In this document: piece by piece, positions 33,520 to 61,550 of the stretch
Layout of the letters: every line of letters starts with the position of its first letter
Position numbering within the stretch: position 1 is the stretch's first letter
Origin: an uncultured Chloroflexia bacterium
GTDB taxonomy: Bacteria; Chloroflexota; Limnocylindria; Limnocylindrales; CSP1-4
NCBI GenBank assembly: GCA_963766735.1
Contig: CAVYBU010000003.1
Location: 288,001-352,000 of the forward strand
Direction: 5' to 3'
DNA length: 64,000 nt
The notes under the pieces: model-generated
The model's database searches: none
What the model was told of the DNA's origin: nothing
Seen by the model: the letters and a program-made list of their open reading frames with translations, nothing else
Position numbers and translations under genes: made by a program

Positions 33520-33556
33520 TCCCGTGCGCGGGCGACCCCGGCACGGCGACAGACTC

Positions 33557-35832: not shown

Positions 35833-35895
35833 TATGCGGTGTAGGGTCGGGGGACCTGAGCGAGGCGGGCCGAGCGGCATGGGCACCGATTGTTG
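35833..35895 (+). repeat. Partial junction element, copy B (right arm only)
   Basis: tatgcggtgtagggtcgggggacctgagcgaggcgggccgagcggcatgggcaccgattgttg. Confidence 0.85.
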
Positions 35896-35985
35896 TGCGG
35901 TTGGCGTGCGCGATCCCCGGCTCTCCCGTTGCCCGGCCGGCCGCCCCCTTCCGGTTCGGTTCTCGGCCCCCTATGCTTCGCGGCC

Positions 35986-39461: not shown

Positions 39462-39654
39462 GAGCGGTGGAGGCTGATCCGGAATGGCAGTGCGCACGGG
39501 CAATATGCGGTTCCTGAGCACGAATCTCGTCGGGGGTGTGGCGCAACGGTGGCGCACGTGCTTTGGGAGTCCCCGGGGCCTATGCGGTGTAGGGTCGGTG
39601 CTCCTGAGCGTGGCGGCCCGAGCGGCGTAGGCACCGATCATTGGGGGCTACGCG
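39462..39654 (+). repeat. tRNA-Pro 5'-half junction element, copy C
   Basis: ttcctgagcacgaatctcgt - cgggggtgtggcgcaacggtggcgcacgtgctttgggag (39531) - tccccggggcctatgcggtgtagggtcgg...gatcattgggggctacgcg. Confidence 0.95.
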
Positions 39655-39860
39655 ACCACGGCTCCGGTCCCAACACCAGCCGGTCGGTGGCCCGGTCGTA
39701 GAGGGCGATTGAGGCGGCTTCGGCCTCGAACACCGCTGCAGTGACATCCACCACCGAGTGCAGGACGGCACGCGCTGCCCGCCTCGAGGCGCCGCGCAGT
39801 TTCGGCGCGCATGGCGATCTCCCGCAGCAGCTGGAGCGTCTCCGGGCCAAGGGTCCTCAT
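39655..39860 (-). pseudogene. N-terminal fragment of a GAF-domain protein, cut off at junction element C
   Basis: MRTLGPETLQLLREIA.../RAVLHSVVDVTAAVFEAEAASIALYDRATDRLVL, then runs into the repeat. Confidence 0.7.
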
Positions 39861-45482: not shown

Positions 45483-45674
45483 GAGCGCCGCAGGGTAGGC
45501 TTCCGGGTGTCGCTCGCGAAGCAGATGCGCTTCCTGAGCACGAGCTTCGTCGGGGCGTGGCGCAACGGTGGCGCACGTGCTTTGGGAGTCCCCGGGGCCT
45601 ATGCGGTGTAGGGTCGGCCCGTGCCGAGCACGAACCGCCGAGCGGCGTAGGCGCCGATTATTAGGGGCTACGCG
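45483..45674 (+). repeat. tRNA-Pro 5'-half junction element, copy D
   Basis: Exact 38-nt tRNA 5' half at 45551-45588 with both conserved arms. Confidence 0.97.
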
Positions 45675-45759
45675 AGTTCAAATTGTGCCCAGTCGGTCCA
45701 CCGAAACGGCCCGGACCGGGATGGACGTCGAGTCGTCCTGGGCGCCCGAGAGTTGCCCC

Positions 45760-46263
45760 CTACAGGCTGGAGAGGACGACCATCAGGGCAAGGACGAAGA
45801 CAATTCCTGACAGTTCGAGTGCGAACCCCAGGCGCAGCCGACGGACCGTGTCGGCGCGCCCAGCGGCGACCCGTGCCTCTGTCGGGACTGCCCACAGGGC
45901 ATCGTCGCCGGCCAGCCGCCGGGCTGCCGGGCTCGTGATGAGCCCCCCAACGGCGAAGATGGCGACCGTGACAGCGATCGCAGCGAGCCAAACGATCCCG
46001 TACTGGCTGCTAAGCGCGTCGATAGATCGTATCGGTCCGAAGACCGTTCCCCGCACGACCCCCAAGACGACGGCGAGCAGGGCCGCACCGATCAGAAGCC
46101 GTTCCGGGCCGAGGATCACGGTTCGGACGAGGTCGCGCTGGCGTTCGATCGGCTGCCCGAAGACGAACGGCAGCAAGACGAGGCTGGCGAACACGGATGC
46201 GCCCAGCCACGCGGCTCCGCCGAGGATGTGGAGGAACTGGACGAGCGCGAGCCCGTAGTCCAT
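45760..46263 (-). CDS. Four-helix membrane protein (DUF2269/CopD-like), sole gene of cassette D-E
   Basis: LVQFLHILGGAAWLGAS...; four hydrophobic segments. Confidence 0.75.
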   Translation of the reverse strand: MDYGLALVQFLHILGGAAWLGASVFASLVLLPFVFGQPIERQRDLVRTVILGPERLLIGAALLAVVLGVVRGTVFGPIRSIDALSSQYGIVWLAAIAVTVAIFAVGGLITSPAARRLAGDDALWAVPTEARVAAGRADTVRRLRLGFALELSGIVFVLALMVVLSSL

Positions 46264-46374
46264 GTGGCTCTCCGATGCGGACCGGTAGTTCGGCATTCGT
46301 ATGTATGAGGCGGTCAGGCTGCCACGTCAACAGGAGGGCGGCTTTCAGGACGAACCAGGCTCGGCGGAGCCCGG

Positions 46375-46566
46375 GAGCGCTGTAGGCTAGTCTTCTGATC
46401 GTCGTTCGGAGGCAGCACATGCGCTTCCTGAGCACGAAACCAGTCGGGGCGTGGCGCAACGGTGGCGCACGTGCTTTGGGAGTCCCCGGGGCGTATGCGG
46501 GGTAGGGTCGGCCCTGCCGAGCACGAGCGGACGAGCGGCGTAGGCACCGATTATTAGGGGCTACGC
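46375..46566 (+). repeat. tRNA-Pro 5'-half junction element, copy E
   Basis: Exact tRNA 5' half at 46445-46482 with both arms; 894 bp from copy D. Confidence 0.97.
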
Positions 46567-46803
46567 CAGCACGGACCGGTGACCTGGCCGTTCCGGCCGT
46601 CGAGGGCTCTGACGCTCGAACGGCCCGTCCCATTGGCGGCTTGGCCGAGGCTGGACCCGGATCGGGACGCCACCGAGCGCCTCACGCTGACTCGGCTGTG
46701 GCGGTGGGGGATCAGGTTCCGGTCGGTGACGATGACGTAGACCGCTCGCTGACTCTGGTTCGACGATGGAAGAGTTCAGCTCAACGCAAGGTCCGCGGCT
46801 CGG

Positions 46804-47206
46804 TCACGGGCATGCGTCGTCGGCAGGCTGGTTCGGGGCGGTGGGTTGGGTGCAGCCCATCAGGGCCGCGTGGTACCCATCCGCTTGGCTGACGAGAAGG
46901 ATGGCGTCGGGCATTCCAGTCCCGGATGCCAGCAGCGCCGGCTGGCCCTGCGCGTTCACGTGCTCGGCGGCATGCATGGTCCAGGACGATACCGGTCCGC
47001 CGGTCGATGCGGCATAGGCCACCGCCCGCCGTTGCAGCGCTTGACAGCGTTCGAGCGGCAGCGACAGACCGGCGCAATCGATCTCCGGTCCGATCCTCCA
47101 GCCCTCGACCGCGGCGGGTCGCCCGATCGTGGAACAGGCCAGAACGGCCGCCGTCGCAAGCGTGAGGCCCGCGATGCGGGCCGAGGATCGCCTCACCCGT
47201 GTCATG
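46804..47206 (-). CDS. Hypothetical lipoprotein
   Basis: MTRVRRSSARIAGLTLATAAVLAC lipobox. Confidence 0.55.
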
Positions 47207-47501
47207 ACGCGATGCTCGCACGGCTCGATCACGGAGACAAGGCTTGCAGGCCCACGCGGCGCCCGGAACTCCAGCCTGGCGTTCTTGGCCGCCCAAGCAC
47301 CTCGGAGTCTACGTGTCAGGACCCCACGGGACCCTGGGGACGCTCCGTCGCCGACCGCCTCTCGCGTGGCTCCGGCCTTCACCGGGCTCACGGATCCTCG
47401 CCGGTCTTGGCGTGTAAGAACCGCCGATCTCCCGTGTCGTGAAGACAGGGACACGGGACGGGCTCCGGAGAGTGAGCCGCCGGGACCCCGGAGGACCAGA
47501 G

Positions 47502-48196
47502 ATGAAGCGGACTCGGAAGTTCGGCGGGCGAGTCGTTACGATGGGTCTCACGGCAGGGTTCGCCCTGATCGTCACGGCGGGAACGGCACTGGCCGCGAGC
47601 GCGACCGTCTCGTTCGCGTCGAGCCAGCCGTTTGCGCCGGTTACCACGGGCTATGACGTCAACTGGTCGAATGGCGGTGGCGCAAACTCCGTCTGGATCA
47701 AGGGATTGACCGGGGTGAATGTCACGAGCCCGCAGGGGGCGAGGGCCGGGCGGGCTCAACAGCACGACGATGACGTACAACGGGCTGAGCGGACGCACGA
47801 TCACCGTGTCGCTCAAGGGCAAGTTCGACTACGCGTGGACCTGCAGCGCGAACTACCCGGCCCAGGCGACCGGTGGCACATCCGTGGTCCTCGGCCTGTT
47901 CGACGTAACTGCCAACCGCCTGGTCAGCAACCAGACCGTCTACCAGCGCGCGTTGCCGGCGTGTCACACCGGCAACATCAGCATCTTCCCGCCCTTCTAC
48001 ACCACGTCCGACAGCCAGCAGACCGGAACAGTCGCCCTCCCTGCACGACGCCGCGAAGTTCGGAGGCGGCCAGATCGTCTGCGGGTCATCGCTACGGGTG
48101 ATCGGCGGGGCTGGAGCCTGATCTGCCTCCTCCGGGATCGTCACCACGACCCTGCTAGTCCGGGGATCGGGCCTCTCGGCGACCCTCACCTACTAG
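47502..48196 (+). CDS. Secreted hypothetical protein, frameshifted
   Basis: GGAGG RBS and signal peptide MKRTRKFGG...TALAA; coding continues in other frames. Confidence 0.5.
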
Positions 48197-48411
48197 CCCA
48201 TCGCCCGCGCCTGCGGAGTCGAACGATGGCCCGTCCGGCAGACGCCCGGGCGGGCCGTCCCGCATGTGACGTTCGGCTCTGGCCGGACGGTGCCAACTTG
48301 CGATGCTGCGCCAGTCGTGCCCGTGATCCGGGTCACGGTGCAGCGGAGCGTCCCGGTGCTCGAGCAGCCGCGTGCTGATGGCCGCGCGGTCCGACTCGGT
48401 GGAGGGACGGG

Positions 48412-50079
48412 ATGGGTCTGGACGCGAGTGCGTTCGAGGCGGCGTACGCCGCGAACGCCGACCGCCTGTACGCGACGAGCCTGCGGATCGTGCGCGAGCC
48501 GGCCGCGGCGCAGGACATCGTCGCCGACGCGTTCGTCAAGGCCTGGACACGGCCAGAGGCGATCGACAATGTGGGCGCTTGGCTGGGCACCGTCGTCCGC
48601 AACGCGAGCCTCAACGCGGTCCGCGACGAGCGCCGGACCGTCCCCCTCGAGCCGAACGACGGCGAGGAGCCGACGGCCGGCCAGCTCGCCTACGCCGAGC
48701 GCGACCCGTTCGCCGACCCGGCCCAAGCAGCTGCCGCCGGCGACTCCCTGCGCACCGTCTGGAACCTCATCGAGGACCTGCCCGCCGAGCAGCGCGCCGT
48801 GCTCGTGCTGCGGGTCGGCGAGGAGCAGCCGCTCGAGGACGTGGCCGCCGCCCTGGGCAAGACCCCCAACGCCACTTACGTCCTGCTTCACCGGGCGCGG
48901 GCCGCCCTCCGCCGCCGGTACGCCGAGCGGGTGGTCGGACGGGCCGGGGTCCCGGAGGCGTGTCGGGCCTGGTTGCCCGACCTCGTCGCCCGGGCCGAGG
49001 GCAAGCCCGTCAGTGACGCGTTCGAGGCCCACCTCGCGACCTGCCCATCCTGTGCCCAGAGCGAGGACGAGGTCCGGCGGATGCCGCTCGCCTGGGTGTC
49101 GCACCCCTCGTCATCGCGCCGGCCGGTCTGGAGTCCACCGTCAAGGCCTCGCTGGCAGCAAAGGGGGTCGCGGTATCGGGCGGAGCGGCATCGGGCAAGG
49201 CGGCCGTTGTCGCGTCAGACCACCACCACCGGCACCGGCGGCCTGTCGGCCGTGGTCATCCTGCCCCTCATCGCGATCGCAACCGTCCTGGTCGTCGGCG
49301 CCGCGGTCCTCGTGACCGGCACGCTACAGCTGCCCGGGGCGGATCCCACCCTGAGCCCGAAGCCGGTGGCAGTGGTCGTAGCACCGACGCCGGCCTCGAC
49401 CGCTGCTGTCGGGATATTCGTTGCGACACCGACGCCGTCGCCCGTATGGTCGGCCGTGCCGGCGAACACGGCCACAACGTCACCGACAGCCGTTCCCATC
49501 GTCCGCGTCGAGGTACCCGTCGCTGCATGTGCCAGTGACTTCGGCGGGACAGGCGCGGAGGGGGAGACCATGCCGCCGACAGCAACAATCGAGATCCCTG
49601 TCGACTTCCGGTCCCGCGTCTCCGCCTACTTCGACGGCTTTAGGTCGCATGTCGGACCATCGGACTGGGATTGCTCGGCAGGCGTCGGGGTGAACGCCTC
49701 ATGGATGGCGATCTCGAATCCCGCCGACGCTGCCCAAGTCGTGTCCTACGACATGCCGGGGGATATCGGAGCAGTCTGGGACCTTGCGTGCCCGCTGTTC
49801 GAGAATGCGAGGACCTCCTACGAGGGCGACTTCGGGGAATGCACCCTGGCGGCTCCGCCACGAGAGGAACGTGTGACGCGCCTGTCGCCGACTGCCCAGC
49901 AGTTCCTTGATCCCGCCCATGTCAAGGGGACCGGTGAAGGGTCTGGGGGTCGGTACCAAGCCCTCGGGGTGCTGGTGTATGACGGCAACTTCGCCGCCAA
50001 GAGCACCTGTCTGATGCCGGAGGGCCAGCAGCTGCTGTGTGAGGCGATCGTTCATGCGTTCGTCGCGGGGTTCAAGTAG
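48412..50079 (+). CDS. ECF sigma factor fused to a zf-HC2 (ZAS) domain, TM helix and extracellular domain
   Basis: AQDIVADAFVKAW, LGKTPNATYVLLHRAR, EAHLATCPSC, TM AVVILPLIAIATVLVVGAAVLV, PT linker. Confidence 0.8.
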   Translation: MGLDASAFEAAYAANADRLYATSLRIVREPAAAQDIVADAFVKAWTRPEAIDNVGAWLGTVVRNASLNAVRDERRTVPLEPNDGEEPTAGQLAYAERDPFADPAQAAAAGDSLRTVWNLIEDLPAEQRAVLVLRVGEEQPLEDVAAALGKTPNATYVLLHRARAALRRRYAERVVGRAGVPEACRAWLPDLVARAEGKPVSDAFEAHLATCPSCAQSEDEVRRMPLAWVSHPSSSRRPVWSPPSRPRWQQRGSRYRAERHRARRPLSRQTTTTGTGGLSAVVILPLIAIATVLVVGAAVLVTGTLQLPGADPTLSPKPVAVVVAPTPASTAAVGIFVATPTPSPVWSAVPANTATTSPTAVPIVRVEVPVAACASDFGGTGAEGETMPPTATIEIPVDFRSRVSAYFDGFRSHVGPSDWDCSAGVGVNASWMAISNPADAAQVVSYDMPGDIGAVWDLACPLFENARTSYEGDFGECTLAAPPREERVTRLSPTAQQFLDPAHVKGTGEGSGGRYQALGVLVYDGNFAAKSTCLMPEGQQLLCEAIVHAFVAGFK

Positions 50080-50180
50080 CGGCTGGGCAATGCGCGACGA
50101 GTTGTATGAATCGCCGCCACTCGCGGGTCATGAGAGCAGGAGCGGATCACGAGATCCGCCTTCGGTGGGAGGTCAAGATC

Positions 50181-51602
50181 ATGGAGTCGCAGGAACGCGG
50201 CGCATCGATCGCCGCATCGTGTTCGGCGTCGCAGGCGCCACTCTCGTAGTCGTCCTTCTCGGCGTAGTGGCCGCGAACACCGTGCTGAAGGATTTGGGCC
50301 GGCTCAGATCCAGGCCATCATCGACAGTATGGCCGGACGGAACGAGACGCCCGTGCTTGCCCAGTGGCAGGAGTTGGGCCGGGAAGTTGGGCGTCGCCAC
50401 AGCCCCCGGCGACGTGACCTTCACCGCCAGCGATGTGCTGGTCGAGGCAGTCAAGGACTCGGACGGCATGTACACGGCGTCATGGACCCTCGACGCCGAA
50501 CGCGACGGAGCGAATTTTGGGTCGACGGTCTACACGGCAACCTTCCAGCGAGGTCCGAAGGACGGCGAGTGGGGAGCGCTGTTCGTCGACGGCGAGCCGA
50601 CGCCCCTTGCCCAGCTGCTGCCATCCGTCACCAGTGAGGCCGCGGCAGCGGCGCTCGTCGCGGGGATCCAGCCGTTCGCCGAGCGGTTCGGGGCGGAGGT
50701 CAGGCTGGACACGGCCGAGGTCCCCGGCGATCCCGCGCCTGCCGACCAAGTCATCAACGAAGAGGCTTGGCTGCAAAGCGAGGAGGAGACTGAGCGGAAC
50801 GGAGAGGACGGGCGCAAGACCCACTTCGCCCTCGATGCCGAAAGCACCCAGATCGACCTGTTCGACCGAGTGGACGCCGCGCCTGTCCAGGGGATCGTCC
50901 ATCGAGGGAGGCTTGCAGAGGCAGAAATCCAGCAGGGGCAGCCGCCACCCTCGCGTTGTTCGTGGGAGGCCGTGCGTACCGGGAATGTCACTCAGGTCAA
51001 GGCCATCCTCAGCGGGGCCGACACGCTGGAGAAGTCGGGCCTCGATTTCATGACCGCCGACAAGAACATGACCGGGTGGTTGGACACGCTTGCGGGCATT
51101 GATCCCGACCGGCTCGCGGTCACGGGTACTCGCGGCCACTATGAGGTCGCTCCCCACGACACCGGCGTCACGCTGCGCAATGACGCGGCAGCCGGCGGGC
51201 CGGGTCATTGGTGCCCCAGGGCTGTGGCTGCGAGATGCCCAGCCGAACGCAACGGCCACGATCCGCGATACGGAGCCGTGCAAGGGCAAGCCCGCCGCGA
51301 GCATCCGTGTTGTCGCGGACCGCGTCATGTACAGGCTCGACGCGGGCCCGCTGCTGTTCATCTCCTCGAAAGCCATGTCCGACGGGGAAGACTGCTACTG
51401 GGCGCAGTCCCTGTGGGTCACAGAGGTGAACGGTGATGCGCGTGACAGCCTCTCATCTGGAGCCGACGGCGGATCGATCGCGATAGGGCTCTCCGGGTTG
51501 TCGGCCGGCGACAAGGTCGATCTCAAGCTCGGCACGGGCTACTTCAACGAGAAGGGCAAACCGGTCGACACAGCCCATCTGAAGTTCACCTTGCCCGAGT
51601 AG
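50181..51602 (+). CDS. Membrane-anchored hypothetical protein, several frameshifts
   Basis: TM RRIVFGVAGATLVVVLLGVVAA; the coding signal switches frames; ends at TAG 51600-51602. Confidence 0.45.
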
Positions 51603-51852
51603 GACGGGTCTCCGAAGGGTGGATCGGGCTCCTGCGGACGTCATACGACGCGTCGCAGGACCCCGTTTGAGCTCGGATGGTCGCCGCGGAACTCCAATGG
51701 GCTCAGGCCGGACGCGGTCGCGACCACCGAGCGTTGATCCCCCATGACTGCCCGCGCCAAGGCGAGGAAGCCAGTTCGACGGGCCCCACGGCGCCCCGGC
51801 TTCGTCCAGGCGGCATGCTCCGACGCGTCCACCATTGGCAAGCCATATGGTC

Positions 51853-53863
51853 TCAGGGAGACCATATGGCTGCCCGTTCCGCCTGTGTCGGGCACCAGGG
51901 GACGGACCCGTCCATTGCGTCGAGCGATCCGCCCGCCACGAGCACGCGGCCTGACGATAGGCCAATCGCCGCGCCACGCGACCGAGCCTTCGGCATTGGC
52001 GCCAACTCGGTCGACAGACCCGTGGCCGGGTCGAAGAGTTCGACCGACGTCAACGCCGTGGCGTCCGGCTGTCCGAGGTGGCGTTCGCCGCCCGCGAGCA
52101 GCACCCGGCCGTCGGTCCGTACCGCAATCGCGGCCGCGGAGCGGTCGGCGAGCGTTCGCCCGATCACTGACCAGCCCGTATCGGGGCTGTAGCGAAGCAC
52201 GTCGCGCGACCCGCCAACGAACAATGCCGACGAGCCGAAGAACAAGGCTGATCCGTCGGGCAACGCGACGGCGCTGCCGAGCGCTCCCGGCGGGGTCAGG
52301 TTCTTCCACGCGCGGCTGCCGGGCGACCAGGCGGCGGCGAGCACCGTCTCCCCGTCGGTAGCCCGCGACCCGCCGAACACCAATGCCCCGCCGCTCCCGA
52401 GGGCGACGCCACCCGTGAGATCCCCGTCCCAGGGGAGTTCGCCGGCAGTCTTCCAGCGGTCGGCAGCCGGGTCGTAGACCTCGGTTGAGCGGGTCGAGTC
52501 GCTTGACACAGTGCTACCGCCGGCGACGAGGACGCGGCCGTCGGAAAGGGTCACGGCCACCGGCGCCCGGCGCCCAAGGCTCATCGTGGCGACCTCGGCC
52601 CATTGTCCGGTATCGCTGCTCCAGATCCGGGTGCTCGACTTGGGCACGAGTCCTGCGTTGAGGCCGCCGGTCACGAGCACGCGGCCGTCAGGGAGTGCCG
52701 CGACGGCGTAGTAGGCCCGCGCGTTGTCGAGGCTGCCCGACCTGATGAACCGGGCGGTGTTGGGACTCCAGACGCGCGCCAAGGGCACCGGCATTCTGTC
52801 ATCGCCTGGATAGGTGCAGGGGCCAGTCGTATCCATGAGCACGACCAGGTCACCCGGTCCTGGCACGAGCACGGGGCTGTCGGCCATGGCGGGGCCCTGG
52901 ACGTCTGTCCACGTCCCCCCCACGGACTCGAGGGAGGGGGCAGGTGTCGGCGTGGGCGCTGGCGTCGGCGCCCGGGTGGGCGAGGGGGAGGCCCGACGGC
53001 GTCGGCTCGGGCTCGGTGCCATCGGAGTGGGTGTGGCGGACCCCGAAGGTTGTGACGTCGGCGTTGGTGACGGCGTTGAGGAGCACGGTCACGAAGTAGG
53101 CACCCGTCTGCTCAAGGAGGCTCCAGAGCAGCTGGCGGGCCTTGATCCTCTGGACATCGTCCGGCCCCGGAAGGTAGTGCGGGAGCACGAGGTCGGGCAG
53201 CAGGTCGTTGACCATGTTGATGACCCCGCCCCAATCCTGCTTCACGGCCGCAGCCCGCACCTCGGGGTAGTGCCAGAAGATGTAGCTTGCGACCGTACCC
53301 GTCGCCTCCCCCGGGAAGCCGGCGAGGCCCAGGAACGTAGTCACGATGATGAGGATGGCCTCGTAGATTGCCGTCTCCTGGGTGACGCCCGCGGTGATGA
53401 CGATCTCGCCCCGCGGCTCGTCCTCATGGATGTCGAGGGCGAATTTGCCCCCTGGCGGGAGGAACCCCCACAGGTAGCTGTTGCCGTCACCCCAGCACGA
53501 CCCCTCGATCGCGCACGCAGCGCCCAAGCCCTGCTCACCGCCGCCCCCAACGTAGAAGGCGAGGGCCAGCGAGCCGTTGAGCCGGAACGCGTCGAGGACC
53601 TTGGAGAGGGCGACGGTGTGCACCTGGGTCATGTCGTCGATGATGGCCGTTTCGTTCTTCAGCACGACCCGCACGGTGCGCGGCGTCTCCTGGTCGCGGG
53701 TGAGGCTCACGCTCGAGCCGGCGCCGTCCACGCTCCACCGCCCATGGTCGGGCCAGTCGGGCATGCGGATTGGGTACTCGTAGGCCGCCACCGGGGCAGC
53801 GCCGAGGGGTAGGGCGAGGACGACGGCCGCCATCGCCGCAGCGAGTGCTCGCAGCATCGTCAC
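51853..53863 (-). CDS. Secreted protein with a PT linker and C-terminal Kelch beta-propeller (frameshift near 53000-53040)
   Basis: Signal peptide at 53863; LPDGRVLVTGG, LSDGRVLVAGG, TDGRVLLAGG repeats. Confidence 0.7.
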
Positions 53864-54396
53864 TGCCCCCGCCAGATGACGCCGACGTCGAGGTCGCCGT
53901 CGGCACGGGTGGTGATGAGGGCCGCGTGGTCGTCGTCGAGCGCGACCATCGTGGTGGTGCCGTCGCGGCTCACAACTGTCTCGGGGGCCTGGCCCCCGAC
54001 CTTGCTGATCGCCGCCTGGTAGAAGGCGATGGCTGCCGCGGCGGTCATGCCCGGCACCCGGAAGGTGACCGAGGTGATTGCGTCGTACTCACTGCCGGCG
54101 ACGACCTGGCTGCCGGGCGCAACGAGCGCTGCTGGCAGGCTGGGGGGAGGCGTGACGCCCTCAGCGACTGGCAGGTTGAGCACGACGGGCGCGCCGGGCG
54201 TCCCGAGAAGGCCGGGCGGCAGCGGCGGCCGGCTCGCCTCCGCTCCCGATGTGGGCAGGGGAGGAAACGAGTGGGCGCTAATGGAGACTGGAGAGCCGGC
54301 GGGCGCCCCGGTCGGGCTGTCTGCGCCGCATGCACCGAGCAGGCACGCGAGGGCTCCGACGGCCAGGACTCCAGCTAGCCGATGCGCTTGACGCAT
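53860..54396 (-). CDS. Hypothetical lipoprotein
   Basis: Lipobox LGAC; GTGA overlap with the downstream gene. Confidence 0.65.
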   Translation of the reverse strand: MRQAHRLAGVLAVGALACLLGACGADSPTGAPAGSPVSISAHSFPPLPTSGAEASRPPLPPGLLGTPGAPVVLNLPVAEGVTPPPSLPAALVAPGSQVVAGSEYDAITSVTFRVPGMTAAAAIAFYQAAISKVGGQAPETVVSRDGTTTMVALDDDHAALITTRADGDLDVGVIWRGQ

Positions 54397-54556
54397 AGGA
54401 CCACCCCATGAGGCCTGATACCTAATGTCCGTAGCGTGTCCGCGGCGAGCCCTACGCACACCACGCCCTTCTTCCCGTGTCCTGGAACCGAGCTCATCGT
54501 CCGAGGTCGTGGCGCGATGGCTCTCATCATCGGCTCAGTCCACGTCCACCTGTGGG

Positions 54557-55031
54557 TTACTACTTCAGCGTCACAGACTGCGCGATCCCCGCGCAAAGGT
54601 CGTCGCTCAGGCCCTCGCACGCGAGCTCGAACGCCACCCCGCCCTTGACGATCAGATACACGATTGTCCGGGTCCTGCTCCGTGCCCCCCGAGACCTCGA
54701 TCGCCTCTCCGGTCGGGAGGTTGACGGACTGCTTTGCAGTGTTGGTCATGCCATAGTCCTTCAGCTTCCAAGCGACGTCGTCGGCCACGGTGTCCAGGGA
54801 CTCAAATGAGCCATATTTCCTGAATTGGAAGGTCCCCAGCGACGAGACCCACTTGTCCCATTCGCCACCGGACGAGGCCTGCCACGACCCGGCTGCAGGC
54901 ACGATGAGACTGTATGTCGCGCCATCGTGGCGCTCGCCGGCTGGAAGCGACTGACTCGCCTCGCCCCCACAGCCGACCATCACCGCCGTCACCGCTGCCA
55001 GCGCGAGCTGGGCAGCCCAGCGCCTTGTCAT
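54557..55031 (-). CDS. Hypothetical lipoprotein (probable frameshift near 54660)
   Basis: GGGAG RBS and lipobox MVGC; alternative-frame end QSVTLK**. Confidence 0.55.
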
Positions 55032-55348
55032 AGCAGGCTCCCTTCACGAGACTCACACCAGCCGGAACCGTGCGGCTGCACTCTGGGACCGGTGGCGACC
55101 CCACGCAGGCAGGCTGGGTGCCGGGCGCTCGAGACGCCACGTGCCGGAGCGACCGTCATGCAGGGCCGAAGGTAGCCGTATCGTCTGTGGTCGGATCGTC
55201 CCTGCCGGTACAGGGTCGGCCGCGCCCGCCAATGGCTATCCACTCGTAGAAGGGAGGGGGCCGATGACGAGGATCGGTTTCCAGGGCGCCATCAGGGATC
55301 GTTCCGGCCGCGTCAGGGGTCGAGCGGACGCCCGAGATATGCTCCTCA

Positions 55349-55491
55349 AGCGGTGTAGCCTAGGCGTCCGCTTCTCGAACGAGGAAGCACATGCGCTTCC
55401 TGAGAGTCCCCGGGGCCTATGCGGTGCAGGTTCGAGGGTCCTGAGCGTGGCTGGCCGAGCGGCGTAGGCACCGATTAATAGGGGCTACGCG
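55349..55491 (+). repeat. Junction element copy F, with the tRNA half deleted
   Basis: gcacatgcgcttcctgag joined directly to agtccccggggcctatgcgg...gattaataggggctacgcg. Confidence 0.93.
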
Positions 55492-56080
55492 AGTTCAGAT
55501 TGTGCCCAGTCGGTCCACCGAAACGGCCCGGACCGGGATGGACGTCGCGTCGTCCTGGGCGCCCGAGAGTTGCCCCCAATAGGCTGGAGAGGACGACCAT
55601 CAGGGCAAGGACGAAGACAATTCCTGACAGTTCGAGTGCGAACCCCAGGCGCAGCCGACGGACCGTGTCGGCGCGCCCAGCGGCGACCCGTGCCTCTGTC
55701 GGGACTGCCCACAGGGCATCGTCGCCGGCCAGCCGTCGGGCTGCCGGGCTCGTGATGAGCCCCCCAACGGCGAAGATGGCGACCGTGACAGCGATCGCAG
55801 CGAGCCATACGATCCCGTACTGGCTGCTAAGCGCGTCGATAGATCGTATGGGTCCGAAGACCGTTCCCCGCACGACCCCCAAGACGACGGCGAGCAGGGC
55901 CGCACCGATCAGAAGCCGTTCCGGGCCGAGGATCACGGTTCGGACGAGGTCGCGCTGGCGTTCGATCGGCTGCCCGAAGACGAACGGCAGCAAGACGAGG
56001 CTGGCGAACACGGATGCGCCCAGCCACGCGGCTCCGCCGAGGATGTGGAGGAACTGGACGAGCGCGAGCCCGTAATCCAT
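55475..56080 (-). CDS. Second copy of the four-helix membrane protein; stop lost, 34-aa extension into the repeat arm
   Basis: Same protein as 45760-46263 at offset 9817; CTG TAG changed to CTA TTG. Confidence 0.75.
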   Translation of the reverse strand: MDYGLALVQFLHILGGAAWLGASVFASLVLLPFVFGQPIERQRDLVRTVILGPERLLIGAALLAVVLGVVRGTVFGPIRSIDALSSQYGIVWLAAIAVTVAIFAVGGLITSPAARRLAGDDALWAVPTEARVAAGRADTVRRLRLGFALELSGIVFVLALMVVLSSLLGATLGRPGRRDVHPGPGRFGGPTGHNLNSRSPY

Positions 56081-56191
56081 GGGGCTCTCCGATGCGGACC
56101 GGTAGTTCGGCATTCGTATGTATGAGGCGGTCAGGCTGCCACGTCAACAGGAGGGCGGCTTTCAGGGCCAACCAGGCTCGGCGGAGCCCGG

Positions 56192-56380
56192 GAGCGCTGT
56201 AGGCTACTCTTCTGGTCATCGCTCGGGGCGCACATGCGCTTCCTGAGCGTGAAGCTCGCCGGGGCGTGGCGCAACGGTGGCGCACGTGCTTTGGGAGTCC
56301 CAGGGCCTATGCGGGGTAGGGTCGGGGGCCCGAGCACGACCGGGCGAGCGGCGTAGGCACCGATTATTAGGGGCTACGCG
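56192..56380 (+). repeat. tRNA-Pro 5'-half junction element, copy G
   Basis: Exact tRNA 5' half at 56260-56297 with both arms. Confidence 0.97.
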
Positions 56381-56430
56381 AGCACGACAGACAGCCTCGT
56401 TGCCGACCGCGCTGACGGGTGGGCTTTGCG

Positions 56431-57368
56431 TCACTTGCTGATGAGGGTCGACCGCCAGGCCACCTCGCTGTCCGGCGTGATCGCGAGAAGCGTGATCGCC
56501 GACCCGGCCCCGGCAGGCTCGACCGCCGTTGCGTAGACCGTCCCGTCGGCGCCGGCCACCACGACATCCCAGCGCCCGGCCGGGTTCGTGAGCTTGACCG
56601 GCCAGCCGTCAACGACCCGGCCGTCCGGCCCGACCGCGACGACTCGCCTGCTGCTCTTCGCATCAGCCGGCGCCAGAAGGACCAGAAGCACATGCTCACC
56701 GGGGCCGAGGGCCGGCACCGTCCGCCACACGCCGCATCCTGTATCGCCCAGCGGCATTCGCCCTGCTCCCCGATGGGCGCACCGGCCGACCACGGCCACC
56801 CGTCGCGGACGGTGCCGTCGGGTCCGAGCGCGTGGACGACGACGCGGTCGCGGTCGTCGACGCCCAGGACCCACGCGGATCCGCCTGGCTCGAGCACGGG
56901 CCTGATCGGCGCGTACCCGCCCGCAAAGGTCGCCTCGGAGATGCGCGGCGCGACTCCGGCCCGGGGGAGGCCGTGTGACCGGCGCAATGCTCGGCAGCGC
57001 GCGTCACCCGAATTCCAGGAGGGGGAGACCCGGATCCGTCCGTCACAGGCGTCACGCTGCCGCTCGCGGGCGGCAAGCGGCAGCTGCGACGACCGGCGAT
57101 GGGATGCGATGCAGCCAGACGCACGATCGGGCTCGCGCAGGCACGGGCGTGGGGGCATCGGGCGGCCAGGATCGGATCCGCGGCGCTCGGGCAGGGTGAC
57201 CCGCGGCAGGTGCTCGAGGGCCAGGGCATCGCCCCGGAACGCATGCGCCCTGCGGGCACAGGCCGGGCACGCGGCGAGGTGCGCCTCGAGGCGGCCGCGC
57301 TCGTACGCCGCAAGCGGGTAGTCGATCGCGGTGGCGGCGAGTGCGAGGAACGTGTCGTGCGTGGTCAT
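56431..57368 (-). pseudogene. zf-HC2 anti-sigma factor, disrupted or internally deleted
   Basis: MTTHDTF...EAHLAACPAC, then frame breaks; C-terminal propeller-like GPDGRVVDGWPV. Confidence 0.6.
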
Positions 57369-57939
57369 TGGGACGCCTCCGCCGACTCGAGCCGGCTGCG
57401 GACCCGGATGCGGGTCCGGCAGAGCAGGGTGCGGGTGGCTGCCTCGGAGCGCCCGATCGCGGCGGCGATCTCGGCCCCGCTGAAGCCTTCGGATGACAGG
57501 AGCAGCGCCGCCCGGGCTCCGGGGTCGAGGTCCGCGAGGATGCCCACGATCGCGGCCCGGCCCTCGCGCGCGAGGTAGCTGGCCTCGGGGGTGACGGTCG
57601 TCACCGGCGGCGCGGTGCGGTGGTCTGGATCCTGACCAGCCCGCGCAGCGCGGTGGAGAGGCGCCGGCCGCGGCTGACCGCGAGGTTGGCACCCACCCGG
57701 TACAGCCAGGCCCGGATGTTGTCGGGGGTCCGCCCCGCCCGCACCTCGCGGGTCAGGCGCAGGTAGGCCTCCGAGAGCAGGTCCTCGGCGACCCCGGGGT
57801 CGCGCGCGGTCCGGACCAGGAACGCGTACACCTCCGCGTGGTGGTCGGTCCAGGCGGCCACGACCAGCGCGTCCGCCTGCGCGGCGCGGGTGGCGCCCGC
57901 GGCGTCCACCGATTCGAGAGGAGAGGTCACCGGTTCCAC
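57365..57939 (-). CDS. ECF sigma-70 factor (frameshift near 57610)
   Basis: AEDLLSEAYLRL, RAWLYRVGANL; region 4 EGFSGAEIAAAIGRSEAATRTLLCR is in a second frame. Confidence 0.8.
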
Positions 57940-57947
57940 GCCGATGA

Positions 57948-57973
57948 GACGCTATGCCCCGCCTGGTGTTTCA
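57948..57973 (-). promoter_or_regulatory. Putative autoregulatory ECF promoter TGAAAC-N16-CGTC
   Basis: Directly upstream of the sigma start codon; matches the classic SigW/SigM-type architecture. Confidence 0.65.
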
Positions 57974-58087
57974 GGGCAGGGGCAAGAGGGCGACGACGGG
58001 CGGGTGCGAATGACCGCGGGCAGGGTGTCCCGGAAGGGCGACCAAGCGGTGAGGCCGCGGGCGGGGAGTCGCGCCGGACAGGGCAGG

Positions 58088-59428
58088 TCAGCGCAACAGC
58101 CAGGCGACCTGCTGGCCTTCCGCCGTGGATCCGCTGATGCCGACGACACCGGCCGGCCCGTCCGCGACGAGCCGCGGGCCGTAGTCGAACTGCGGCCGCT
58201 CGGCCTGCGGCAGCTGCGTCCAGGAGACGCCGTCGTCGCTCACCCAGGTCTCGTGCCTCACCCCGCCCCCTTCCCTGCTCTCGGCGCCGACGGCCACATA
58301 GCCGCGATCCGAGAGGACGAGATCCGTCACGGCGGTCACGCTCACCGTGTCTTCGGGGTCCTCCGCGACGGCGGGCGGCCCGGCCGGGAGCTCCTGCGAC
58401 TTCCAGCTGGTGCCGTCGGAGGACGACCAGATCGTCGGCGCGCCGGCGCGTCCCGCGTCGACGTCCCAGCCATTCCGCCCGGCGAGCACCCAGGGGTTGC
58501 GGTCGCCCGCCGGGGCCGTGCCCGCGAACACCTCGGCTCCCTGGCCCGGGAAGCCGTCGAGGACGCTCCACGACGCTCCGTCGGCCGTGATCGCGAGTGT
58601 CGTGTTGAGCTCGTAGCCGCTGGCCGCGAGGAGATAGGGCCCGGACGGGTTCGCGACGCCCACGGGAGCGCGGTCGTAGCCCTCCCAGCCGGCCGGGGGC
58701 ACCTGCTCGGTGGCTGCCCATGACGTGCCGTCGGCGGAGTGCCACAGCATCCTGCCTCCCAGGCTCTCGCCGGACCAGTCAGAGAGCGCCGCCGCCCAGC
58801 CGCCCTCCGCCACCGGCCATGCCGCGACGAGCTCGCTCAGCTCACCCTTCCCGTTCCCCGTGTAGGCGCGGCGCCAGGCGACGCCGTCGTCCGAGATCCA
58901 GGCGATGGGCGAAATCGAGCAGTCAGGCCCGCCGCCCGTGCTGCCGGGTTCGGTGAGACTGCACGGCGTGTGGCTGTAGCCGCCGACGACGAGCACCTCG
59001 CGCCCGTTGGTCGCGATCGCCCGGCCGAGCAGGCCGTTCGCATCGGTCGCTTCCGAGCGGTCGCCCTTCAGCGGGAGCTTCACGTTCTTCCAGGACGCGC
59101 CGTCAGCCGAGAACCAGACGCTGCCGGTGGTCCCTTCGAGGGCGACGTAGCCCTCGTCGAACCCGATGATGCCGTTGACGCGAGTCACCGGGATGACCCC
59201 CAGGCGGTGCCAGGCGAGCGTGTCGGCTGAGCCCGTCCAGGACGACGCCGACGGGCCGGGAGACCCCGGCGAGGGTGCCGCCGTCGGTGGGATCGGGGCG
59301 GAAGTCGCAGTCGGCGACGCGGTCGGAACTGCTGTTGACGGAACTGGGTCCGGCGTTGTCGAGGCTGCCGGCGCAACGCAACCCGCGACGACAAACAGCA
59401 CGGCCAGCGCCCCGAGGGCTCGAGTCAT
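58088..59428 (-). CDS. Lipoprotein with BNR/Asp-box-like repeats
   Basis: Lipobox VAGC; WFSADGASW, WISDDGVAW, WSSSDGTSW, WVSDDGVSW. Upstream GGTAAC-N16-CGTC (59486-59461). Confidence 0.78.
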   Translation of the reverse strand: MTRALGALAVLFVVAGCVAPAASTTPDPVPSTAVPTASPTATSAPIPPTAAPSPGSPGPSASSWTGSADTLAWHRLGVIPVTRVNGIIGFDEGYVALEGTTGSVWFSADGASWKNVKLPLKGDRSEATDANGLLGRAIATNGREVLVVGGYSHTPCSLTEPGSTGGGPDCSISPIAWISDDGVAWRRAYTGNGKGELSELVAAWPVAEGGWAAALSDWSGESLGGRMLWHSADGTSWAATEQVPPAGWEGYDRAPVGVANPSGPYLLAASGYELNTTLAITADGASWSVLDGFPGQGAEVFAGTAPAGDRNPWVLAGRNGWDVDAGRAGAPTIWSSSDGTSWKSQELPAGPPAVAEDPEDTVSVTAVTDLVLSDRGYVAVGAESREGGGVRHETWVSDDGVSWTQLPQAERPQFDYGPRLVADGPAGVVGISGSTAEGQQVAWLLR

Positions 59429-59797
59429 GACCCACCTCTCACAGCTGCGAACGATGATGAGACGCGCAACACGAGCAGGCGTTACCGCGCGCCGGCCGCG
59501 AGCCGGTGTCCTCGCATCTGAGGAGGGATCTCCGTGCCCAGGATGGATGCCGGGGAGTCCCGGCGGCTGGCCCACCGCGCCGTCGACATCGTCGCCGACA
59601 TCTCGCCGGCACCCAGGGCGACCCCTCGCAGCCGGCCGCGCTCCCGGTCGGCCCGGACCGCGCTGGCCGCTCCTGGCGGGATCGCTGGGTGAGCGGCCAG
59701 ATATTGGGGCCACCCCAGTCGAAGACCGGTAACAGACAGGGGCGTCCGGGCGTCCCGTGGTCGTAGATGTGCCCTTCACCTCGCTCGAGGAGAGCAG

Positions 59798-60175
59798 ATG
59801 ACCACCCATCGCCAGCTAGTCGGCCGGATCACCGTGGCGCTGCTCCTCATCGTGATGGCAGCCGGGTGCAGCCGGTTTGGTCCTCAGCTGACCATCGGCG
59901 TCGACCTCACCGGCGGTCCGAAGGAAGCGACGCTGACCGTCGACTCGTCCGGCCCGGGCATGACCGGTGGCGAGGACGTAGTGATCCTCAATGGGGAGCG
60001 GTTTGGGATGAGCATGCCGCTCCCGTCCACGTGGGAAGTCAAGGTCGACGGCAAACACATCATCGGCTCGGGCGATCGGACCGGCGCGCTCCCGTCACCG
60101 GGCCAGGGGCAGGACGTGACGATCTGTATCCGGGTCGCCGCGGATGGCACCGTGAAGCTCGTTGACGCCTGCTAG
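59798..60175 (+). CDS. Hypothetical lipoprotein
   Basis: GAGGAG RBS and lipobox AAGC. Confidence 0.65.
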   Translation: MTTHRQLVGRITVALLLIVMAAGCSRFGPQLTIGVDLTGGPKEATLTVDSSGPGMTGGEDVVILNGERFGMSMPLPSTWEVKVDGKHIIGSGDRTGALPSPGQGQDVTICIRVAADGTVKLVDAC

Positions 60176-60445
60176 GTCGCTGCGGCGAGGCAGCCAGGCC
60201 CGAGCGGCTGACCAGCTCGAGTCAGCGACAGCGACAGCCGGGAACGAGGACTCGACTTCGCCCCGGTCGGCCAGGGCCGCTGGCGGCTCGTGGCGGGATC
60301 GCAGGACCGGGGCACCGGCGAGGACATCGACAGGGACCGCCTCGGAGGTGATCGTGGCGGCGAAGCCGCGTCCCTCGCTGATCGTGGCCGGAGGTCCGAA
60401 CAGGATCTGGAGCCGGTCGATCAGGAGCGCGAGATGACGAAACAA

Positions 60446-60862
60446 CTAGCGGGGGTCGGGCACCATCACCGGACGCAGCGCGAGACCCTCGATCCCCGCG
60501 AAGTCGTCCGGGTTGCACGTGTAGAGCGGGAGGCCATTGGCGATCGCCGTGGCCGCGATCAACGCGTCGAGCGCCCGGGCGGCCGGCTTCCGGCCGGACC
60601 GGCGGAGCGACGACGCGACCTGGCCGAACGCGCGGGCGGCGGCCGCGTCGAACGGGAGGGGGTCGAAGTCCGCCTCGGCCTGCTGGACATGAGCCAGACG
60701 ACGGGCTCGCTCGGCCTCGTCATTCGTCACGAGTGGCCCGACCGAGAGTTCGGCGAGGGTGATCGCCGAGATGAGCGGGACGTCGGGCAGGACGGACGGA
60801 ACGTCGATCCGCGGCAGCAGCAGCAGGGTGCTAGTGTCGAGCAGGCCCTCCGGGTCGCTCAC
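60446..60862 (-). CDS. vapC: VapC-family PIN-domain toxin
   Basis: GLLDTSTLL, ISAITLAEL, LPFDAAAA, DALIAATA, LYTCNPDDF. Confidence 0.9.
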   Translation of the reverse strand: MSDPEGLLDTSTLLLLPRIDVPSVLPDVPLISAITLAELSVGPLVTNDEAERARRLAHVQQAEADFDPLPFDAAAARAFGQVASSLRRSGRKPAARALDALIAATAIANGLPLYTCNPDDFAGIEGLALRPVMVPDPR

Positions 60863-61095
60863 AGGCCGGGTTCGATCACCGTGTCGACCTCGTGGCGCAG
60901 CCTCGTCGCATCGACTTCCGGCAGGCGACGCCAGCGCTCGAGGAGCGCGGCCGCCGACAGACCCCGCGGGCGGATGGGCCGCAGCTCGGCGACCGGTCGC
61001 CCGTCGCGCGTCACCGTCACGTGCCCGCCGGTCTCGACGCGGTCGACGACCTCACCTCCGCGGTTGCGCAACTCCCGGATCGTCACGGTGTCCAC
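60859..61095 (-). CDS. Phd/YefM-family antitoxin
   Basis: VTIRELRNRGGEVVDRV...VTRDGRPVAELRP; GTGA overlap with the toxin. Confidence 0.88.
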   Translation of the reverse strand: MDTVTIRELRNRGGEVVDRVETGGHVTVTRDGRPVAELRPIRPRGLSAAALLERWRRLPEVDATRLRHEVDTVIEPGL

Positions 61096-61407
61096 GCCAA
61101 GAACCGTATCACCGGTGATACACTTGTCAAGTGCCACCATGAGCCCCGGGATTGACCGCCAGCGCGATGCCATACAGCCCGCTGCCGGCGTTGTCGCCGG
61201 CGACGATGATGGTCATAGCGACCATGCATGCCACGCAACCGCCGATCACGAGCCCGCCGCCGATCCTTCCCATCCGCATCTCAGGCTCTCGGTCGATGAC
61301 AAGGTCGCACGAGGCTGCTTCGAGCAGCCCGCGGCCAACCTTGGCGGCGGTCAGGCGATCCGGCGAGATCCGAACGGCTCCGGCCGCCGATCGCGGCGCA
61401 GGCGCAT

Positions 61408-61513
61408 GAGCGCTGTAGGCTAGTCTTCTGGTCGTCGCTCGGGACGCACATGCGCTTCCTGAGCACGAAACCTGTCGGGGCGTGGCGCAACGGTGGCGCA
61501 CGTGCTTTGGGAG
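61408..61513 (+). repeat. Junction element copy H: left arm plus the 5' half forming the intact tRNA
   Basis: gagcgctgtaggctagtcttctg...gcacatgcgcttcctgagcacgaaacctgt precedes the tRNA, as in copies A and C-G. Confidence 0.95.
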
Positions 61514-61550
61514 CACGAGGGTGTGGGTTCGAATCCCACCGCCCCGACCA
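61476..61550 (+). tRNA. tRNA-Pro(TGG)
   Basis: Cloverleaf CGGGGCG/CGCCCCG, GCGC D-stem, CGTGC-TTTGGGA-GCACG, GTGGG-TTCGAAT-CCCAC, encoded ACCA end. Confidence 0.95.

Follow-up and report, generated by a model that had tools for sequence, protein, structure and literature searches.

The 64,000-nucleotide stretch of an uncultured Chloroflexia genome analysed here (the window) contains two nearly identical 0.7-kb units that are probably copies of one single-gene module, belonging to a stack of at least eight integrase-less modules inserted by an Xer-like integrase at a tRNA-Pro gene, which this module would have entered twice (Table 1). The preliminary description of this DNA was right in its interpretation of a discrete module in a site-specific array, but its simple excision and re-integration does not account for the copies, and it missed that the junction elements are tRNA-derived att sites in nature.

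Table 1. Coordinates, in the window, of modules, junctions, cassette copies and target tRNA gene.
Feature	Coordinates	Strand	Description
Module 0	24965..33334		oldest part of the insert; ECF sigma / kelch / PD40 genes (Pfam)
Junction J1	33335..33529	+	full unit: tRNA-Pro upstream region, tRNA 5' half, arm
Junction J2	35831..35924	+	degenerate, arm only
Junction J3	39463..39659	+	near-full unit, type-B arm middle
Junction J4 (D in the preliminary description)	45484..45679	+	full unit, type-A arm
Cassette copy 1	45680..46375	-	one gene, small membrane protein, weak CopD-like match
Junction J5 (E in the preliminary description)	46376..46572	+	full unit
Module c5	46573..55348		8.8 kb: fused ECF sigma / anti-sigma, kelch protein, unknowns
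Junction J6 (F in the preliminary description)	55349..55496	+	upstream part joined straight to type-B arm
Cassette copy 2	55497..56192	-	same gene, start at 56080, stop lost
Junction J7 (G in the preliminary description)	56193..56385	+	full unit
Module c7	56386..61408		fusion of two parts: sigma/anti-sigma module (to ~58050) and 3.4-kb part with PIN gene
Functional tRNA-Pro(TGG), 61476-61550, with ~68-nt upstream region	61409..61550	+	attR-type end of the stack

The recurrence of an approximately 700-bp unit with scattered substitutions was confirmed by alignment: positions 45677-46376 match 55494-56193 without gaps at an offset of 9817 (98.4% identity, 11 differences in 700 nt), and the longest identical run between the copies is 224 nt (all differences tabulated, 45637-46390). 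The cargo between them, reported earlier as about 9 kb, is the 8.8-kb module c5, which is similar to neither copy; because of it, a simple tandem duplication is excluded, as had been argued. Each copy is flanked on both sides by members of one repeat family, in agreement with the claim that junction elements bound the units. That similarity stops at the element arms is true in part: identity falls at the element edge, from 97-99% to the level common to all members of the junction family, but it ends completely only past the far side of each element, where on the right the sequences are unrelated beyond 46572 and 56385, and on the left identity is down to 39% across the upstream region and tRNA half, a segment deleted in the junction of copy 2. 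The left arms of the two copies are 0.86 identical in the 5' part, 0.60 in the middle and 0.94 in the 3' part, and their right junctions are 0.79 identical in the upstream region and 1.00 in the tRNA half.

The gene of copy 1 (45760-46263, minus strand) has 167 codons from an ATG following a GGAGAG motif. Its stop codon (TAG, 45760-45762) is TTG in copy 2, where the stop loss noticed earlier lengthens the frame by 34 codons to 55475, inside the J6 arm. Besides the lost stop, the copies differ by five synonymous and no non-synonymous changes in 167 codons, which indicates that both are under selection. The cassette gene and its right-hand junction are 97% identical in another species (G023; 94% over 830 nt including the junction), the flanking genes of G000 and G023 being only 76-81% identical, and therefore the cassette moves horizontally; the left flank of the G023 cassette differs, beginning just past the stop codon. 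A search of other genomes for the gene flanked by the same arms at another array position, suggested in the preliminary description, found none, and a scan of metagenome contigs for the cassette protein gave 577 pattern matches, none of them confirmed, and no relative. Scanning 45400-46650 for a consensus promoter and terminator found nothing, and since no consensus sigma-70 promoter was detected in the junctions flanking copy 1, a promoter role of the junctions is putative.

The junction elements are attP-like units derived from the tRNA gene. Seven lie upstream of the functional tRNA in the window, five copies of the tRNA 5' half being found there in the orientation of the tRNA. All junctions consist of the ~68-nt upstream region of tRNA-Pro(TGG) and the first 38 nt of the tRNA, through CTTTGGGAG in the anticodon loop, followed by a switch to a conserved arm of ~90 nt; all 49 aligned junctions follow the tRNA through this sequence and then diverge. 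The arm motif GCGSYGTAGG occurs 13 times in the window (0.71 expected), always on the plus strand, with 11 of the 13 in junctions. J6 has lost ~44 positions between CTTCCTGAG and CTTTGGGAG, including most of the tRNA half, so the left junction of copy 2 has no intact core. In the 20 loci that hold the tRNA and at least one junction, the junctions are without exception upstream of the tRNA and co-oriented with it. A structured RNA or attC-like hairpin was considered and rejected: consensus folds of 7 and of 47 junctions lack covariation (compensatory change in 1 of 25 and 0 of 16 pairs) and contain no hairpin spanning the unit, and the only Rfam matches in the window are the functional tRNA and a c-di-GMP-II riboswitch. 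Many BLAST matches stop in the middle of an arm palindrome (GCGTAGGCACC / GATTATTA / GGGGCTACGC). A second crossover there was rejected, the alignment of 49 junctions showing two arm-end variants and no breakpoint.

Comparison with a relative that has an empty site shows that ~36.5 kb (24.97-61.47 kb) has been inserted. In that relative (G006), the homologue of 24244-24961 lies ~330 nt from the tRNA; in G073, with flanks 89-94% identical, a junction directly follows the homologue of 24254-24963. No junction was found inside module 0 by nhmmer with --max, or inside module c5; the start of module 0 (25022-25145) resembles that of module c1 (33554-33677, 77%, repeat D13). The sigma/anti-sigma part of c7 ends in a junction in C5, L052 and G019/G081, and its PIN-gene part is 96-97% identical in G073. 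Entire modules are found again in other species, at different positions of the stack: module c2 of G019 matches the tRNA-proximal module of G081 (84% over 2.5 kb), and c2 of the window matches the tRNA-proximal module of G076. In the arrays of the congeners and the window together, 16 of 52 intervals between junctions do not exceed 1.7 kb. Elsewhere in this genome the junction unit is found only in a fragment of the array on contig C30, where the locus is unrelated, and at the end of contig C5, which stops inside a junction and holds a third copy of the sigma module (93%). The joint of 47242 to 56259 seen on C30 recurs, at 92% likeness, in one contig of run X9 that probably comes from a relative.

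Neither an integrase nor a remnant of one was detected in the window (profile of seven orthologues, best E 1.2), and no cognate integrase was found in this assembly (93.85% complete), the best tblastn matches being 25-31% identical; five PF00589 matches are present in the assembly, none on this contig. The congeners encode a 316-aa tyrosine recombinase (Phage_integrase and SAM-like N domain) that is Xer-like and scores below the XerC, XerD and IntI cut-offs. Among 14 matches of at least 62% identity in the genus, nine are located 119-168 bp from the tRNA 5' end in divergent orientation. Taken with the array of site-specific insertions and the empty site, these nine bear out the description of the unit as a discrete module. 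G019 has five integrase-less modules distal to its integrase module. Within the genus, 27 of 70 genomes have junctions with arms; six further genera of the family add another 12 genomes, and among 209 genomes from four other families in the class there is none. The integrase on C2 was rejected as a possible helper: it adjoins a second tRNA-Pro-like gene, belongs to a different, classically placed family and is 24.6% identical to the cognate enzyme over 175 residues. Plasmid and phage collections yielded only distant integrase matches (26-28% in plasmids, at most 36.5% in actinophages), the junction pattern had no match in viral contigs, and at none of its 33 loci in metagenome contigs did the cassette gene or the integrase lie within 2.5 kb.

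In a comparison of 49 junctions, arms stay linked to the cargo that follows them on the right, and upstream regions to the cargo that precedes them on the left. Five pairs with homologous right cargo are 0.82-1.00 identical in the 5' part of the arm (mean of all pairs 0.70) and 0.29-0.61 identical in the upstream region (mean of all pairs 0.56), and five pairs with homologous left cargo are 0.75-0.94 identical in the upstream region. From this linkage, the putative crossover lies where the tRNA half meets the arm, at the anticodon loop. The two cassette copies violate the rule, with 99% identical cargo, 60% identical arm middles and 79% identical right upstream regions, and therefore the excision and re-integration proposed in the preliminary description is insufficient as stated, the att halves being mismatched and the cognate integrase absent from the assembly; to explain them, one must assume either different donors or no fewer than two additional recombination events. 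The repeated acquisition that was also proposed fits best if followed by recombination inside the junctions, and accords with the 97% identical copy in another species.

In the mechanism that these features suggest, the Xer-like tyrosine integrase would target the tRNA-Pro(UGG) gene at its anticodon loop, where it would insert modules successively. The attP of a circular module would comprise a P side (the ~68-nt tRNA upstream region and the 5' half), an anticodon-loop core and a P' arm of ~90 nt with conserved GCGnnGTAGG motifs. On integration, the P side of the module would rebuild the tRNA, and the previous 5' half would be displaced upstream and fused to the module arm, so that every internal junction would be a reconstituted attP and the newest module would adjoin the tRNA. 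Under this model the J4 arm (45590-45676) would belong to cassette copy 1, of which the J5 upstream region and tRNA half (46376-46482) would be the P side. The module with the CopD-like gene would have joined the stack once before and once after c5, most likely by two separate acquisitions from a pool circulating between species and less likely by re-integration of an excised copy; later recombination within junctions may have replaced the arm in copy 2 and, in copy 1, the upstream region. Since the integrase is no longer in the assembled genome, the stack would be either frozen or mobile only with help in trans.

It is rather unlikely, though the strongest of the alternatives, that the second copy was made by homologous instead of site-specific recombination, either through unequal crossing-over between junction repeats (duplication of c4 and c5, then deletion of the second c5) or through replacement of the content between J6 and J7 by a junction-cassette-junction segment of incoming or sister origin, in a double crossover or by gene conversion, with conserved junction blocks as homology arms. 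The junctions are ~190-nt direct repeats in which the 38-nt tRNA half does not vary and the ~35-nt arm end hardly does, and it is at their outer conserved blocks, not at the anticodon loop, that the 97-99% identical segment stops; but on the right it does so after a conserved block of only ~16 nt, short for a RecA-type exchange. Junction interiors are mosaic (the J6 arm is closest to that of J3, 88%; the J5 upstream region is closest to that of the functional tRNA, 93.5% over 108 nt), the integrase is absent, and the fragment on C30 lies at an unrelated locus. The unequal-crossover route, however, needs two events, and the 5:0 ratio of synonymous to non-synonymous changes, together with the 97% identical copy against a 76-81% identical background, shows that diverged module alleles circulate between genomes, so that independent arrival needs no special assumption.

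Two separate acquisitions are also preferred to an assembly chimera, an improbable explanation in which the sequences of two strains that each have a single copy, differently placed with respect to c5, would have been threaded together through the repeats. The assembly is a metagenome bin of 35 contigs (4.22% contamination); the array is evidently hard to assemble, since C5 ends inside a junction and carries the third sigma module copy, and identical runs between the copies reach 224 nt. Eleven read runs were matched, each at no more than 0.20 of sampled words and all as short contigs, and the short contigs of four runs include no piece across either copy with its flanks. Each copy nevertheless has unique entry and exit sequences, its own share of the 11 differences and differently built junctions; the path from c3 through copy 1, c5 and copy 2 to c7 crosses unique sequence on every side, and a chimera would still mean two stack positions in two strains, which supports mobility. 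It is hardly credible that the junction is instead a MITE- or SINE-like mobile repeat, derived from a tRNA, that inserted around ordinary chromosomal genes which had already been duplicated, for although the unit is short, conserved and in a single orientation throughout, it is confined in this genome to the array, the C30 fragment and the C5 end, lies upstream of tRNA-Pro in 20 of 20 loci, is missing together with the entire 36 kb at the G006 empty site, and has halves that follow different neighbours, as those of att sites do and those of transposed units do not.

The stack resembles the tRNA islands of the Islander account (PMC4383910) in having an intact tRNA at one end, displaced fragments in direct orientation, an element that restores the gene, an anticodon-loop crossover and repeated insertion leading to tandem stacking. 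That account gives 159 of 3919 islands with a 5' fragment and four tandem arrays of at least three members, each member being required to have an integrase (PMC4383910); here, unlike the islands it describes, what is displaced is the 5' half together with the upstream region, and at least eight modules are stacked with an integrase in none. An intact gene with a same-orientation fragment, identity ending at the anticodon loop and an unoccupied site in a relative (G006) are all found here, as expected of a tRNA island, but the integrase inside the island next to the att site is seen in nine congeners instead. One element reportedly reverses the usual orientation of the target gene.

The ssrA islands of Dehalococcoides, as presented by McMurdie et al. 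2011 (PMC3146451), likewise lie in tandem at one small-RNA gene, bounded by gene-fragment repeats and a short conserved motif; 15 are said there to have no integration module and to be possible cis-mobilizable elements. They use the ssrA 3' end, a 20-bp repeat and a CcrB-like serine recombinase (DsiB) according to that source (PMC3146451), in contrast to the tRNA-Pro 5' half, the ~190-nt junction and, in the relatives, the Xer-like tyrosine recombinase of the present system. The host phylum is probably the same. In the present stack one module is found twice. Pavlovic and colleagues reportedly described, in 2004, cis-mobilizable elements (CIMEs) and their accretion and mobilization with ICEs in streptococci. 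CIMEs are att-flanked units without recombination or transfer genes, stacked by site-specific integration beside an integrase-bearing element (tRNA-proximal in the congeners). Here att-like junctions flank much smaller modules, no recombinase or conjugative partner was found, and both the function of the sites and mobilization by an integrase-bearing element are putative.

Tycheposons of Prochlorococcus, in the account of bioRxiv 10.1101/2020.12.28.424599, also push older elements inward as newcomers arrive and accumulate partial tRNAs and degenerate elements, with tRNA-Pro(tgg) among the named targets; as described there, they carry an integrase and replication genes and most genomes hold one or two, whereas the present arrays are long series of modules that lack an integrase and have att junctions that are complete and well preserved. 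The scanned modules showed no replication genes. Integrons consist of IntI, attI and attC cassettes, the attC sites being imperfect inverted repeats that fold as single-stranded hairpins. Shared with them are a one-directional array of small, often single-gene modules, a conserved recombination site between modules, an Xer-related recombinase, cassette duplicates and exchange between species. Unlike integrons, this system has no IntI (TIGR02249, 48.1 bits versus a cut-off of 265; NF011946, 27.2 versus 435) and no attC-like hairpin supported by covariation; it is anchored at a tRNA gene, which every module has to rebuild, and its genes lie on either strand.

Stacking into a tRNA gene is a known way of building islands, here in an unusually cassette-like and integrase-free form. 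Tentatively, it may be a tRNA-anchored cassette system, integron-like but with the logic of a phage integrase, in which modules from ~0.7-1.5 kb with a self-contained attP that rebuilds tRNA-Pro would be moved in trans by a small Xer-like integrase, itself a module that always lands beside the tRNA and comes and goes; integrase-free stacks would then be a standing gene pool exchanged between species and not a graveyard of decayed islands. Well-kept junctions, single-gene modules, the 97% identical copy in another species and the double copy would follow if this were true. The stack represents the rarer, mirror-image form of tRNA integration, in which the element must supply the tRNA 5' half and upstream signals, and its units, far below classical island size and integrase-free with complete att junctions, stand between genomic islands and integron cassettes. 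If the modules are mobile in trans, they would constitute a second, independent way of building a cassette array, and the junction and integrase would form a compact system of site-specific recombination that targets a tRNA and is amenable to testing. For this little-studied, uncultured family of Chloroflexota, the stack illustrates how a hypervariable, regulator-rich island is built, holding ECF sigma/anti-sigma pairs, cyclases, a Crp-like regulator, toxin-like genes and small membrane proteins.

The preliminary description placed a cassette of about 700 bp, bounded by junction elements, twice in the window at an offset of 9817, and its alignment agrees: 45677-46376 (copy 1) and 55494-56193 (copy 2) match without gaps at 98.4% identity (11 differences in 700 nt), each copy is flanked by members of one repeat family, and the unrelated cargo between them, earlier put at about 9 kb, amounts to 8.8 kb similar to neither copy. 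The unit consists of a single gene encoding a small membrane protein, with a weak match to CopD (E 0.0025, below the cut-off) and atlas neighbours in clusters without names, for the most part from Chloroflexota. The stop codon reported as missing from one copy is lost from copy 2 (TAG to TTG), where the frame runs on for 34 extra codons into the neighbouring element. Apart from this lost stop, the coding regions differ by five synonymous and no non-synonymous substitutions, which points to copies that probably diverged under selection rather than to a fresh duplicate in decay.

Alignment of the repeats with the tRNA-Pro(TGG) gene reveals two parts in a full junction: ~68 nt from upstream of tRNA-Pro with the first 38 nt of the tRNA, ending CTTTGGGAG in the anticodon loop, and a conserved ~90-nt arm in place of the tRNA 3' half. 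A profile search of the whole assembly located the element outside the array at two places only, one on contig C30 and the other where contig C5 is cut off. Direct copies of GCGSYGTAGG, located in the arm and the upstream region, number 13 in the window (0.71 expected), of which 11 fall within junctions, all on the plus strand; GAGCACGA, the 3' strand of the anticodon stem, is likewise present in arm and upstream region (18 copies, 4.3 expected), and both repeats may be binding sites. There was no sign of a conserved RNA fold in the junction. The copied upstream region also contains an anticodon-arm look-alike, GCACATGCGCTTCCTGAGCACGA (versus GCACGTGCTTTGGGAGCACGA in the tRNA); the deletion in the rearranged junction J6 fuses precisely this look-alike to the arm, as might be expected had it acted as a secondary core.

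Features of the tRNA-Pro array and its surroundings in the window (junction elements J1-J7 and the tRNA with its upstream region located by profile searches)
Feature	Position	Strand	Remarks
Direct repeat	1-300; 382-681		100% identical, period 381, extreme start of window
Gene behind riboswitch	24248-24883		
c-di-GMP-II riboswitch	24819-24903	minus	70 bits
Sigma/kelch-repeat gene pair	25809-29727		tandem duplicate, period 1824, 95% over 300 nt
J1, full junction	33335		
J2, arm-only remnant	35831		
J3, full junction	39463		
Crp-like regulator gene	39885-41072	minus	
Three tandem 93-nt repeats	40761-41039		94-100% identical
J4, full junction	45484		
Cassette gene, copy 1	45760-46263	minus	167 codons counted from ATG behind GGAGAG motif
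J5, full junction	46376		
J6, rearranged junction	55349-55496		~44 positions absent between CTTCCTGAG and CTTTGGGAG, among them the greater part of the tRNA half
Cassette gene, copy 2	start 56080	minus	place matching copy 1 start; stop lost
J7, full junction	56193		
Anticodon-arm look-alikes	46420-46441; 56237-56258; 61451-61472		also in other junctions
Real tRNA with upstream region	61409		
tRNA-Pro(TGG) gene	61476-61550		ARAGORN and Rfam

Integration at the anticodon loop predicts that the arm tracks the cargo to its right, and that the upstream region and tRNA half track the cargo to their left. In a test on 49 junctions, the five pairs with homologous right-hand cargo agree at 0.82-1.00 in the arm 5' part, 0.59-1.00 in the arm middle and 0.29-0.61 in the upstream region, and the five with homologous left-hand cargo at 0.75-0.89, 0.45-0.68 and 0.75-0.94, respectively (means of all 1176 pairs 0.70, 0.56 and 0.56), the pairs being few and some sharing members. 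These values fit a crossover where the tRNA half meets the arm.

Arm-bearing junctions are found in 27 of 70 genomes of the genus, with three to six in a row in several (G058, G082, G019, G081, G063 and G015), and in 12 genomes from six other genera of the family; a search of four further families of the class (209 genomes), with only two candidates scored per genome, found none. Twenty loci combine the tRNA with one or more junctions, and in all of them every junction lies upstream of the tRNA in the same orientation. The 52 inter-junction intervals span 318-14815 nt (16 are 1.7 kb or shorter), and small ones hold a single gene for an MFS transporter, Fic, nucleotidyltransferase-HTH, SnoaL-like or unknown protein. 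Spacing is equally short at 33 junction loci from metagenomes, where no integrase was found within 2.5 kb of a junction.

In the complete genome G006, ~330 nt separate the tRNA from the homologue of window 24244-24961. The counterpart in G073, which of the relatives examined is the closest and has flanks 89-94% identical, is directly followed by a junction. Hence ~36.5 kb (24.97-61.47 kb) is an insertion in the genome under study (G000). The first 8.4 kb of the insert has no junction left, and its start resembles that of the next module (repeat D13). By Pfam, the insert carries ECF sigma and anti-sigma factors, kelch and PD40 proteins, two adenylate cyclase/AAA/TPR proteins, a Crp-like regulator and a PIN protein. 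The oldest part of the insert includes a tandem duplication of a sigma/kelch-repeat gene pair, and the 5' part of the Crp-like regulator gene contains the 93-nt repeats, which encode three 31-residue repeats. Immediately left of the insert, a c-di-GMP-II riboswitch precedes a gene whose G073 homologue, at 77% identity against 89-94% for its flanks, has an arm remnant on one side and a junction on the other; the gene could thus be an old module in its own right.

Entire modules recur at other stack positions in other genomes: module 2 of G019 matches the tRNA-proximal module of G081, and window module c2 matches that of G076. The sigma/anti-sigma module that begins c7 has further copies in G000 on C30 and C5 (92-96%), and terminates in a junction in C5, stretch L052, G019 and G081; c7 is therefore a fusion from which one junction was lost. 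The C30 copy (93-96%) belongs to a 3.3-kb array fragment at an unrelated chromosomal place adjoining CODH/ACS genes (C30:255985-259288 = L001:6985-10288), where it follows a copy of the start of c5 (87% identical to window 46714-47242) that is joined to a junction missing its upstream region; the same joint (47242 to 56259) occurs on one metagenome contig of sequencing run X9. C5 (L002:1-5660), a 5.7-kb contig ending within a junction and bearing the third copy (93%), could be a stretch of the array that was left unplaced, or else its version in another strain.

Of the 70 genomes of the genus covered by the proposed search for the cassette gene elsewhere, just two carry it: G023 and, as a 68% match, G069. 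In G023 the gene is accompanied by its right-hand junction (97% identity; 94% over 830 nt including the junction; flanking genes 76-81% identical to those of G000), but to the left the sequence changes just beyond the stop codon, so that the same cargo and P side (upstream region and tRNA 5' half) stand in another context.

The double copy is best explained by one module arriving twice: a module with the cassette gene would have entered the stack once before c5 and again after it, and recombination in the junction interiors would have come later. The preliminary description had proposed excision and re-integration or repeated acquisition; repeated entry is the likelier of these, but the att halves expected to travel with the module are far less alike than the cargo (588/595 identical) and the spacer from arm to stop codon (67/69). 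The left arm matches at 25/29 in its 5' part, 15/25 in the middle and 31/33 in its 3' part, and the right upstream region at 54/68. The near-identical block does end in junctions as described, but only at their outer conserved blocks, the tRNA half being identical (38/38). The pair therefore departs from the co-travel of arm and upstream region with cargo, and extra recombination inside junctions, or different donors, are required. The nearest relative of the copy 2 arm is the J3 arm (88%), and that of the upstream region following copy 1 is the upstream region of the real tRNA (93.5% over 108 nt); homologous recombination among junctions is a serious rival as the source of the double copy. 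An assembly chimera is improbable; under it two strains would still carry the module, each at a different stack position.

None of the five Phage_integrase matches in the G000 assembly (93.85% complete) is on this contig, Pfam identified no recombinase among 128 ORFs of at least 110 aa at 29.5-64 kb, and a profile of seven orthologues detected no integrase remnant in the window (best E 1.2). G019 encodes a 316-aa tyrosine recombinase immediately upstream of the same tRNA, in divergent orientation, with a SAM-like N domain, no separate arm-binding domain, and scores far under the XerC, XerD and integron-integrase cut-offs. It is matched at E 1e-30 or better in 34 of 70 genomes of the genus; nine of the 14 matches with at least 62% identity lie 119-168 bp from the tRNA 5' end (G019, G023, G005, G068, G013, G085, G009, G083 and G049), and for the remaining five, the match is on another contig or no tRNA was found in the genome. 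The best matches in G000 are just 25-31% identical. Truncated copies beside a junction or the tRNA in G015 and G050 indicate that integrase decay inside stacks occurs elsewhere. Genus-wide, about two dozen matches in a group of Xer-like paralogues (35-53% identical to the tRNA-Pro integrase) each show exactly one in-frame TGA/TAG, which may be just the alignment overrunning the natural stop. In the classical 3'-side arrangement, a different tyrosine integrase immediately follows a second tRNA-Pro-like gene of G000 (C2:350185-350913, L021; 78% identity to tRNA-Pro(TGG)).

Repeated site-specific integration into tRNA-Pro, one module after another, best accounts for the stack, and is a known route of island growth at tRNA genes (PMC4383910; PMC3146451; bioRxiv 10.1101/2020.12.28.424599). 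Its integrase-less modules may either move in trans like integron cassettes or be frozen remains of larger elements. The G000 stack would be the rarer, 5'-fragment form of tRNA-gene island growth.
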